This document shows, piece after piece, positions 44,176-45,595 of a stretch of 64,000 bases of DNA. Every line of letters begins with the position of its first letter. Position 1 is the stretch's first letter. The notes below the pieces were generated by a model. It worked only from the letters and a program-made list of their open reading frames with translations, did not search any database and was not told the origin of the DNA. Source of the DNA: Escherichia phage NHEP10; the sequence record PQ511148.1, one strand, 5' to 3'. The translations under genes and the position numbers were made by a program.

Positions 44176-45595
44176 TTATGGATATGTATAGATGATACCA
44201 GTTTCCAAAGCAGTTTTATGGATGATGTATCCATTACGTGATTCTTGAACATCAACTTCCGGATAATCTTTCATCATCTTCTGAAGTGTGTAACGATGCA
44301 AGTAGTACTTACTATCTGGATCTTCAGTTTTCCAATCTTTACCTTCTTCAGCCATTTTTTGGATTTCATCCATAACCCACCATCCGCACCAGATGTAAGC
44401 TGAAGTACGATGTGGAAGAGGATGAACATAAGGTAGTTCACCTTCTGGTTCTGGAGCAACTTTATCAGTTACCTGAACTTGACCTTCTGCTGTAATAGTT
44501 TTGCTATCGTAATCAGTTGCAGTAATAGTTGCAGTAACTTCAATAGTTTGACTTCCAATAGATGAGGTATCAACCGTGTATACATTAGTTGACCCTTCTA
44601 CTGGAGAAGAATCTTTCTTCCACGAGTAAGTAATTTGTGCTGCGTCAGGTGCGCCAGTAACATTAGCAGTAAATGTAGCCGAAGCATCTTGTTGAACATT
44701 AATAGAAGGAGGAGTCAATGTAACCTGTGGATTCATTGTCTTCTTATTAACCGTTAATGATACTTCATTCGAAGTAACTTCCTTTGCATCATAATCTGTC
44801 GCGGTTACTTGGGCTACACACTTAATTTTTTTTAACTCCACTTGTAGTTGGAGTATAGCTAAATGTAGAGTTAGTTTCTCCACCAACCTGTGAATCATCT
44901 ACATACCACTGATACGTAGCAGACGCTCCAGCCGGTTGAGAAGCTAAGGCAGCAGTAAATTGAACTGGGGTTCCAATTACTCCGGCTGAAGGACTATTAG
45001 GAGTTACTGCCAACGTAGTTGTCTGTGTCTTTTTATTAACAGTCAGTGACACTTCATTAGAAGTAACGCTTAGTGCGTCATAATCTGTTGCTGTTACTTG
45101 AGCTACACACTTGATTTTTTTAACTCCGCTTGTGGAAGGAGTGTAATTGAATGTAGCGGAAGTTGCTTCGTCTACAGGAGAACCGTCAACGTGCCATTGA
45201 TAAGTAGCGTTTGCGCCTGATGGCTGCGAAGCTAAAGCGGCGGTAAATTGAACCGGCGTTCCAATTACTCCAGCGTCAGGGCTATTAGGAGTTACAGCTA
45301 AGGTAGTCGTTTGTGTCTTGTTTTGAACTGTGATAGTTGTAGAAGCTTCTGCTGTTTCAGCTTCAGCTTCTGGAACTGTATTTGTTGCAACTACTTTAAT
45401 AGTCTTTTGACCGGCAGGTCCTTTTAGTACATAACTAAAAGTTGCTTCAGCTCCATCTTGTGGAACATCATTTACAGTCCAAGCATATGTAATAGTTCCA
45501 CCTCCAGTTTCACCACTGGGAGTAGCAGTAAACTGCTTAGTCTGATCTATAACTCCGGTAGGTGTTTTAGGAGTTATATCAACTGTAAAAGCCAT
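44176..45595 (-). pseudogene. hoc: hoc (highly immunogenic outer capsid protein), split by +1 frameshift in A8 tract and carrying a duplicated Ig-like domain
   Basis: track ORFs 44822-45595 and 44176-44898 are in different frames; deleting one A at 44826-44833 restores GVKKIKCVAQ; the intact upstream copy has A7. Confidence 0.75.
44741..45316 (-). repeat. diverged tandem duplication (2 x 288 bp) encoding two copies of a Hoc Ig-like domain
   Basis: residues 94-189 and 190-285 (read-through numbering) about 80% identical. Confidence 0.7.

Follow-up and report, generated by a model that had tools for sequence, protein, structure and literature searches.

Gain or loss of one base within a run of adenines is a classic mechanism of frameshift mutation in bacteriophage T4. 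The Streisinger-type hotspots at A runs in the T4 rII and e genes are reversible, and their mutation rate rises with the length of the run.

The Hoc protein of T4 (PDB 5vf3, 8t1x and others) has 376 residues, and capsid binding has been localised to its C-terminal domain (PMC10385173). The number of Ig-like domains in Hoc is known to vary, from a form that lacks domain 3 up to forms with ten Ig domains (PMC10385173; PMC11853027). T-even phages that do without the protein have also been described. T2 carries no Hoc according to a review (PMC8396182), and T4 HAP1, which has an ochre codon at Hoc codon 166, produces mature phage without functional Hoc on the capsid (PMC10580926).

In this study we analysed hoc in a window of 64,000 nucleotides from Escherichia phage NHEP10 (PQ511148.1), the window being the whole stretch of DNA considered here. 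A sequence-only reading of the window had drawn attention to a duplicated Ig-like domain in hoc and to a frame break at a homopolymer of eight adenines. Combining alignment to T4 Hoc with a survey of T-even genomes, we propose that the A8 run is probably the product of a recent, genuine replication-slippage mutation from A7 in Ig domain 2, which would leave the virions without Hoc.

Results

Organization of the hoc locus

The hoc gene is located on the minus strand, directly after an inh homologue, and starts at 45595 with TAAGGA ahead of the start. Comparison of the window ORFs with the T4, T2 and JN02 annotations showed that this genome position is conserved, downstream of inh and upstream of 24.3, 24.2 and rnlB. 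The gene does not run in a single uninterrupted frame from the Ig domains to the capsid-binding domain. As had been noticed from the sequence, the frame breaks at the A8 run at 44826-44833, and the +1 shift leads into a premature TAA at 44822-44824 (Table 1). The predicted product ends in ...TTSGVKKN* within domain 2, in agreement with the earlier expectation of a truncated protein that lacks the capsid-binding domain. The +1 frame is open from the 5' side of the A8 run through to 44176-44178, and no further stops or indels were found in the 3' part of the gene when this frame was read to its TAA. Removal of one A from the run restores a hoc ORF of 1419 nt encoding 472 aa. As written, hoc is by this reading of its frames a pseudogene or null allele.

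Potential internal starts are present around the break. The GTG at 44839-44841 has no Shine-Dalgarno sequence, as read directly from the sequence. The ATG at 44734-44736 is the annotated start of a 186-aa C-terminal ORF in the phages 172859UKE1, PM105 and vB_EcoM_FN (hereafter FN).

A/T runs of at least 8 nt are rare, with three in the 64-kb window. At 42481-42520, between convergent genes and adjoining the 3' end of an RNA-ligase-like ORF (42514-43512), an A8 run precedes the hairpin GGGGACCGTAAGGTCCCC. This element resembles a bidirectional terminator, and its run lengths differ from those in JN02 and Ec3-ASingh.

Table 1. Positions of hoc features in the NHEP10 window; residue numbers are those of Hoc with one A removed from the A8 run.
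Feature	Coordinates	Strand	Remarks
hoc 5' frame as written	44822..45595	-	257 aa; spans Ig domain 1, the additional domain 2' and roughly two thirds of domain 2
hoc 3' part, +1 frame	44176..44826	-	ATT AAG TGT ... to TAA 44176-44178; end of domain 2, domain 3 and capsid-binding domain
A8 homopolymer, +1 frameshift site	44826..44833	-	T8 on the plus strand; stop TAA just 3'
A7 run in upstream domain copy 2'	45115..45121	-	homologous to the A8 site; in frame; reads GVKKIKCVAQ
GTG in the downstream frame	44839..44841	-	5 nt upstream of the A8 run; equivalent GTG is the RefSeq start of the second T6 hoc CDS
Internal ATG (MNPQV...)	44734..44736	-	weak Shine-Dalgarno-like TAAGAAGA upstream
Intrinsic-terminator-like hairpin AGGGGCTTCGGCCCCT, then T-rich stretch	44143..44170	-	3' of hoc; terminator annotated at the same place in relatives
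Ig-like domain 1, residues ~1-92	45320..45595	-	predicted from alignment to T4 Hoc 1-92
Extra Ig-like domain 2', residues 93-188	45032..45319	-	diverged duplicate of domain 2
Ig-like domain 2, residues 189-284	44743..45031	-	interrupted by the frameshift
Ig-like domain 3, residues 285-376	44467..44742	-	Ig_3/I-set matches at 289-373; T4 Hoc alignment
C-terminal capsid-binding domain, residues 377-472	44179..44466	-	corresponds to T4 Hoc 281-376; limits from PMC10385173

Domain composition of the repaired protein

The repaired protein was aligned to solved T4 Hoc (PDB 5vf3_Z and others). Its residues 1-134 correspond to T4 Hoc 1-134 and residues 189-472 to T4 Hoc 93-376, with an E value of 8.5e-236. 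By this alignment the protein is T4 Hoc (376 aa) with Ig domain 2, a unit of 96 aa, present twice. The sequence-only reading had arrived at a protein of about 470 aa that combines four Ig-like domains, one more than in T4 Hoc, with the capsid-binding C-terminus, and the 472 aligned residues and the extra copy of domain 2 agree with it. Both features expected of a Hoc protein are present, namely the capsid-binding C-terminus and an N-terminal string of Ig-like domains, as indicated by the alignment to T4 domains 1-3 and the 96-aa repeat. The capsid-binding residues differ from their T4 counterparts by few substitutions, and PHROG families of Hoc-like head decoration proteins match residues 390-472. 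In Pfam searches with the repaired protein, PKD exceeded its cut-off and Ig_3 and I-set fell slightly under theirs.

The copies of domain 2 share ~75% of their nucleotides and 81 of 96 amino acids (84%). A higher identity at the protein level than at the DNA level suggests that the duplication is old and that both copies have been under constraint. The A7 run and the GVKKIKCVAQ sequence that had been reported for the upstream copy are present in frame. The copies are spaced 288 nt apart on the 5' side of the tract and 289 nt apart on its 3' side. This change in spacing across the run locates the extra base to the run independently of the reading frame.

Relatives of NHEP10 and frequency of the four-Ig form

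Judged from nucleotide identity, which over 24 kb is 99.0% to Ec3-ASingh and 98.7% to JN02, the window comes from a Mosigvirus-type T-even coliphage. One block, at 8300-27500, shares only ~86% identity with JN02 and contains numerous in-frame indels, whereas the rest of the window is 95-99% identical. By the JN02 annotation the block contains baseplate wedge, tail pin and fibritin genes, and it looks like a mosaic block.

A single intact hoc CDS of 1419 nt is annotated at this position in JN02, WFbE185, moskry, EC128, KFS-EC3 and SA20RB. The frameshift separates NHEP10 hoc from its closest relatives, all of which have the gene in a single frame. We estimated the frequency of the four-Ig form from 51 full-length matches evenly spread over 659 matching T-even records. 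The four-Ig form (1419 nt) and the three-Ig form of T4 were almost equally common, with ~25 and ~26 of the 51, respectively. Since about half of the sample has four Ig domains and variation in domain number has been published, the duplicated domain is ordinary. The extra domain noted in the sequence-only reading is therefore nothing special, the nearest relatives carrying the same 1419-nt form.

The A tract in other T-even phages

Searches for the tract were run in blastn mode; a short megablast query had missed JN02 and other relatives. JN02 has an A7 run at this site (GTT AAA AAA ATT). The run is interrupted (GTA AAA AGA ATT) in Ec3-ASingh, WFbE185, moskry, EC128 and T4, the first three of which read GTAAAAAGAATT at the tract. 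Most relatives break the run, either as GTA AAA AGA ATT or as GTT AAA ACA ATT. An uninterrupted A7 was found in a minority, about a dozen phages in the collection as judged from match spans.

The gene was compared with hoc of related T4-like genomes, as had been proposed earlier. The closest relatives of NHEP10 are intact, and the tract is shifted in FN, T2, 172859UKE1, PM105, T6 and UPWr_E2. The closest counterpart is FN, which reads GGAGTT-A8-TTAAATGC and has the same +1 shift and the same GVKKN* end in a three-Ig gene. Its sibling vB_EcoM_F1 has A7 and an intact hoc of 1131 nt. Over 50 kb the difference between FN and F1 consists of one SNP and the A in the tract, and Illumina MiSeq was used for each. 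The sequence-only reading had named a relative with the same A8 and a separately initiated C-terminal ORF as an observation that would count against it. FN is such a relative, but its C-terminal ORF is an annotation call, which does not show that a separate protein is made.

Other phages are shifted in either direction, some by +1 and others by -1. All eight records of T2/SV76 have A6 at the tract, and T2 hoc has suffered an 11-bp deletion and a 2-bp deletion as well. A6 is also found in 172859UKE1 (MZ234025) and PM105 (MZ234041), which we counted as one event since the A6 allele is locally identical in the two and their accession numbers are neighbours. PM105 (MZ234041.1) has a +1 in the tract of its upstream copy (~780) and a -1 in that of its downstream copy (~1075), 288 nt apart, and its hoc is annotated as three CDS. 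In UPWr_E2 the upstream-copy tract, which is A7 in NHEP10, is A6. T6 reads GGAGTTAAAAAGAATTAA in two identical records (NC_054907.1 and MH550421.1; locus 1307-1340), which places a +1 shift in the same codons and again leads to GVKKN*. Two 'Hoc-like' CDS are annotated for T6 in RefSeq NC_054907.1 and none in MH550421.1. The second T6 fragment, KMB99_gp220, serves as a non-essential insertion site in one 2026 paper.

Taken across the deposited genomes, T-even phages have shifted repeatedly at this tract, which makes it a frameshift hotspot. Because A7 alleles are few, a large share of the lineages with an uninterrupted run appear to have slipped. Our survey of the tract used queries placed on it, and the proportion of hoc lesions that seem to fall there is inflated for that reason. 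The A8 allele itself is rare. Among 662 matching INPHARED records it was seen at the tract only in FN, a degenerate A8 pattern gave eight matches in IMG/VR, none of them related to hoc, and the A8 allele with longer flanks gave no hoc match in metagenome contigs or GTDB genomes. Exact look-ups of the 257-aa, 240-aa and 186-aa products in the protein collection found none; thus no independent assembly of NHEP10 came to light.

Other disruptions of hoc

In the even sample of 51 T-even records, hoc is disrupted in at least 6, and tract lesions account for two of these six genes. They are UPWr_E2, with its lesion in the upstream-copy tract, and the T2-like SV76, with a tract lesion and two deletions. 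The other disruptions are a 55-bp duplication in G29, a -1 outside any run in Ec_YwIITB1, an in-frame stop in OE5505, and, in BCPEco_001, +1 insertions in runs of G and of C, which may be sequencing errors. In these genomes the lesions are varied, and the A tract is apparently the most recurrent single lesion site in hoc and not the sole one. The sample suggests that hoc, a dispensable decoration gene, is broken in about one in ten deposited T-even genomes.

Single-base indels in the window

The whole window was aligned to JN02 and Ec3-ASingh (33.6 kb, 98.5%), with the well-conserved part at 27.5-62.5 kb. In this part, hoc is the only gene with a single-base indel in its middle relative to these phages; the others are intergenic or at gene ends. 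A second coding A/T run of 8 nt, at 5270-5277 in a 208-aa minus-strand ORF (5024-5650), keeps the frame, with no indel relative to JN02. An intergenic A7 run at 48141-48147 differs from JN02, and this run is naturally A6, A7 or A8 among relatives. A generalised homopolymer error in the assembly was therefore rejected for the window, there being no other mid-gene frameshift, the run at 5270-5277 being in frame, and the run at 48141 being naturally variable. The out-of-frame 3' part of hoc differs from Ec3-ASingh by one amino acid and from JN02 by three. A single lesion in a gene with so few differences indicates that the event is either very recent or not real.

The run at 5270-5277 is another potentially slippage-prone coding run. 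The run at 48141-48147 adjoins a hairpin that resembles a terminator and follows the uvsW-like helicase region.

Discussion

The sequence-only reading had placed sequencing error, pseudogene and phase variation side by side as explanations for the A8 run. A real mutation is the best supported of them, given a clean assembly and a tract that is shifted in independently sequenced phages. We infer that the extra A is in the DNA and not in the base calls. According to the mechanism we propose, strand slippage during replication would have extended the A7 run of Ig domain 2 to A8. Translation would then end at GVKKN*, and the 257-aa product would be without domain 3 and without the capsid-binding domain. 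Because the capsid-binding end is absent from the product, virions should be without Hoc, and by analogy with T2 and T4 HAP1 they would be Hoc-less yet viable. Hoc is dispensable in culture, which would allow such a variant to survive or to take over a stock. At a hotspot tract, A8 would also be expected to return to A7 with fair frequency, so that the stock may contain both alleles; we infer that reversion occurs.

The main alternative is an artefact of sequencing or assembly, in which the true sequence would be A7, the gene would encode an intact 472-aa Hoc, and the homopolymer would have been over-called by one base. A single-base lesion in an 8-nt run is a classic error type on several platforms, NHEP10 was analysed as a consensus sequence, and the +1 insertions in the G and C runs of BCPEco_001 resemble homopolymer error. 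Apart from FN, A8 was seen at the tract in none of the records and contigs searched. The otherwise perfect state of hoc does not discriminate, since a recent mutation and an artefact would both leave the gene free of secondary decay. Such an error would, however, have had to strike hoc alone, with no second mid-gene frameshift relative to phages that are 98-99% identical and with the other coding A8 run called in frame without an indel. The same shift was also recovered by Illumina sequencing in FN relative to F1. In addition, T2 and T6 have been sequenced repeatedly and are shifted at the tract, indicating that real shifts do happen there. We thus consider an error less likely than a real mutation.

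A genuine A8 in the DNA could also have other consequences than loss of Hoc, or could be there for a reason. If RNA polymerase slipped on the run, or if the lysine tRNA slipped by +1 on AAA AAA A, a useful share of the products from A8 might in principle be full-length Hoc, and with a +1 slip at the second Lys codon the peptide would be exactly the wild-type GVKKIKC. In bacteria, transcription does slip on A/T runs, and some IS elements have a productive A8 (PMC1088944). The run is nevertheless no longer than the threshold reported for E. coli RNA polymerase (PMC6260861; PMC1088944): detectable slippage takes at least 7 T and a larger number of A residues (PMC6260861), and selection against runs usually becomes apparent only at 9 nt (PMC1088944). 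A shifted two-frame arrangement is moreover not conserved, the nearest relatives having a single frame. We regard this form of rescue as highly improbable, and little rescue of full-length Hoc is expected. Even less probable is a split Hoc, in which translation would restart at the GTG or the internal ATG and place a fragment of domain 3 and the capsid-binding domain on the capsid as a shortened fibre. C-terminal ORFs are annotated in T6, FN, 172859UKE1 and PM105, and capsid binding does map to the C-terminal domain (PMC10385173). Neither start, however, has a good Shine-Dalgarno sequence, and the ATG encodes an ordinary Met of the linker between domains 2 and 3 that is present in T4 too. In T2 an ORF is open from the same ATG (annotated CDS, locus 1429-1854) and is ended early by the 2-bp deletion, and no Hoc is reported for this phage (PMC8396182). 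The A run might instead be kept by selection, as a contingency locus for reversible Hoc on/off switching that trades mucus adherence or immunogenicity against cost. The coding repeat behaves as hypermutable, being A8 in NHEP10 and A6, A7 or A8 in relatives, and its length changes both ways in several lineages. The near-clonal pair F1 (A7) and FN (A8) is the sole hint of ON/OFF interconversion, and switching could matter ecologically as Hoc mediates mucin binding (PMC11853027; PMC10385173). A selected switch should keep its repeat, yet in most relatives an AGA or ACA codon interrupts the run (AAA AGA or AAA ACA), and adaptive phase variation is therefore not supported. The two further deletions in T2 speak of decay and not of switching, and the unrelated lesions in other disrupted hoc genes fit the simple loss of a dispensable gene. 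Selection for switching is accordingly very unlikely in our view. A true contingency tract would flip Hoc off and on frequently in both tandem domain copies of the phages that carry A runs, giving mixed populations of Hoc-plus and Hoc-minus virions, which we hold to be quite improbable. If it were true, populations would hedge adherence to mucus and surfaces against free diffusion and immune evasion, and T2 and T6 would be laboratory lineages frozen OFF. The overall pattern fits repeated loss of a dispensable gene, mostly by what would be the easiest mutational route.

A recent slippage mutation, the reading that we favour, has practical implications. Annotators should flag NHEP10 hoc as frameshifted and label it either a pseudogene or a position that needs re-checking. 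Those who would use the phage for Hoc display, for mucus-adherence work or for therapy should be aware that its virions are probably without Hoc. One short A tract appears to lie behind several independent breaks of hoc, those of the classical phages T2 and T6 included, and it could provide a simple, testable marker of Hoc loss during laboratory propagation. This recurrence across lineages is a modest point. In the literature searched, we found no published account of a hoc frameshift hotspot or of the Hoc status of T6 virions.

Comparison with known systems places NHEP10 hoc among familiar examples. It is the same gene as that of T4, in the same position between inh and 24.3/rnlB, and all 376 residues of T4 Hoc could be aligned to it. 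It differs from T4 hoc in the extra copy of Ig domain 2 (472 versus 376 aa) and in the broken frame, which uncouples the Ig domains from the capsid-binding domain. After one A is removed, its architecture and length are identical to those of the Hoc found in Mosigvirus and in many Tequatrovirus phages (JN02, WFbE185, moskry, EC128, KFS-EC3 and SA20RB), which has 472 aa and four Ig domains. The genes of these phages are 92-98% identical to it at the nucleotide level and intact, whereas A8 in NHEP10 replaces their A7 or interrupted run.

The shifted phages T2, T6, FN, 172859UKE1, PM105 and UPWr_E2 likewise have a one-base change at the GVK(K/R)IK codons of a domain 2 copy. FN has exactly the A8 and GVKKN* of NHEP10, although FN, T2 and T6 are three-Ig forms and NHEP10 is a four-Ig form. 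In T6 and in copy 1 of PM105 the shift occurred in an interrupted run (GTT AAAAA G), and the remaining shifted phages have a -1 (A6), unlike the +1 of NHEP10. T2 hoc is an old pseudogene with two more deletions, whereas NHEP10 hoc is free of secondary damage. The stop of T4 HAP1 (IKCVAQ*) likewise interrupts this strand of domain 2 and lies four codons beyond the position that matches the NHEP10 stop; it arose by a nonsense substitution in a three-Ig gene and not by a frameshift. The Streisinger-type hotspots in T4 rII and e were defined by laboratory crosses, whereas the evidence for the NHEP10 tract is comparative and comes from deposited genomes. Phase-variable contingency loci also use a coding homopolymer to switch a surface protein, and in contrast to them the NHEP10 tract is not conserved among relatives. 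NHEP10 hoc is best read as joining the naturally Hoc-defective T-even phages such as T2, by a mechanism that is not new.
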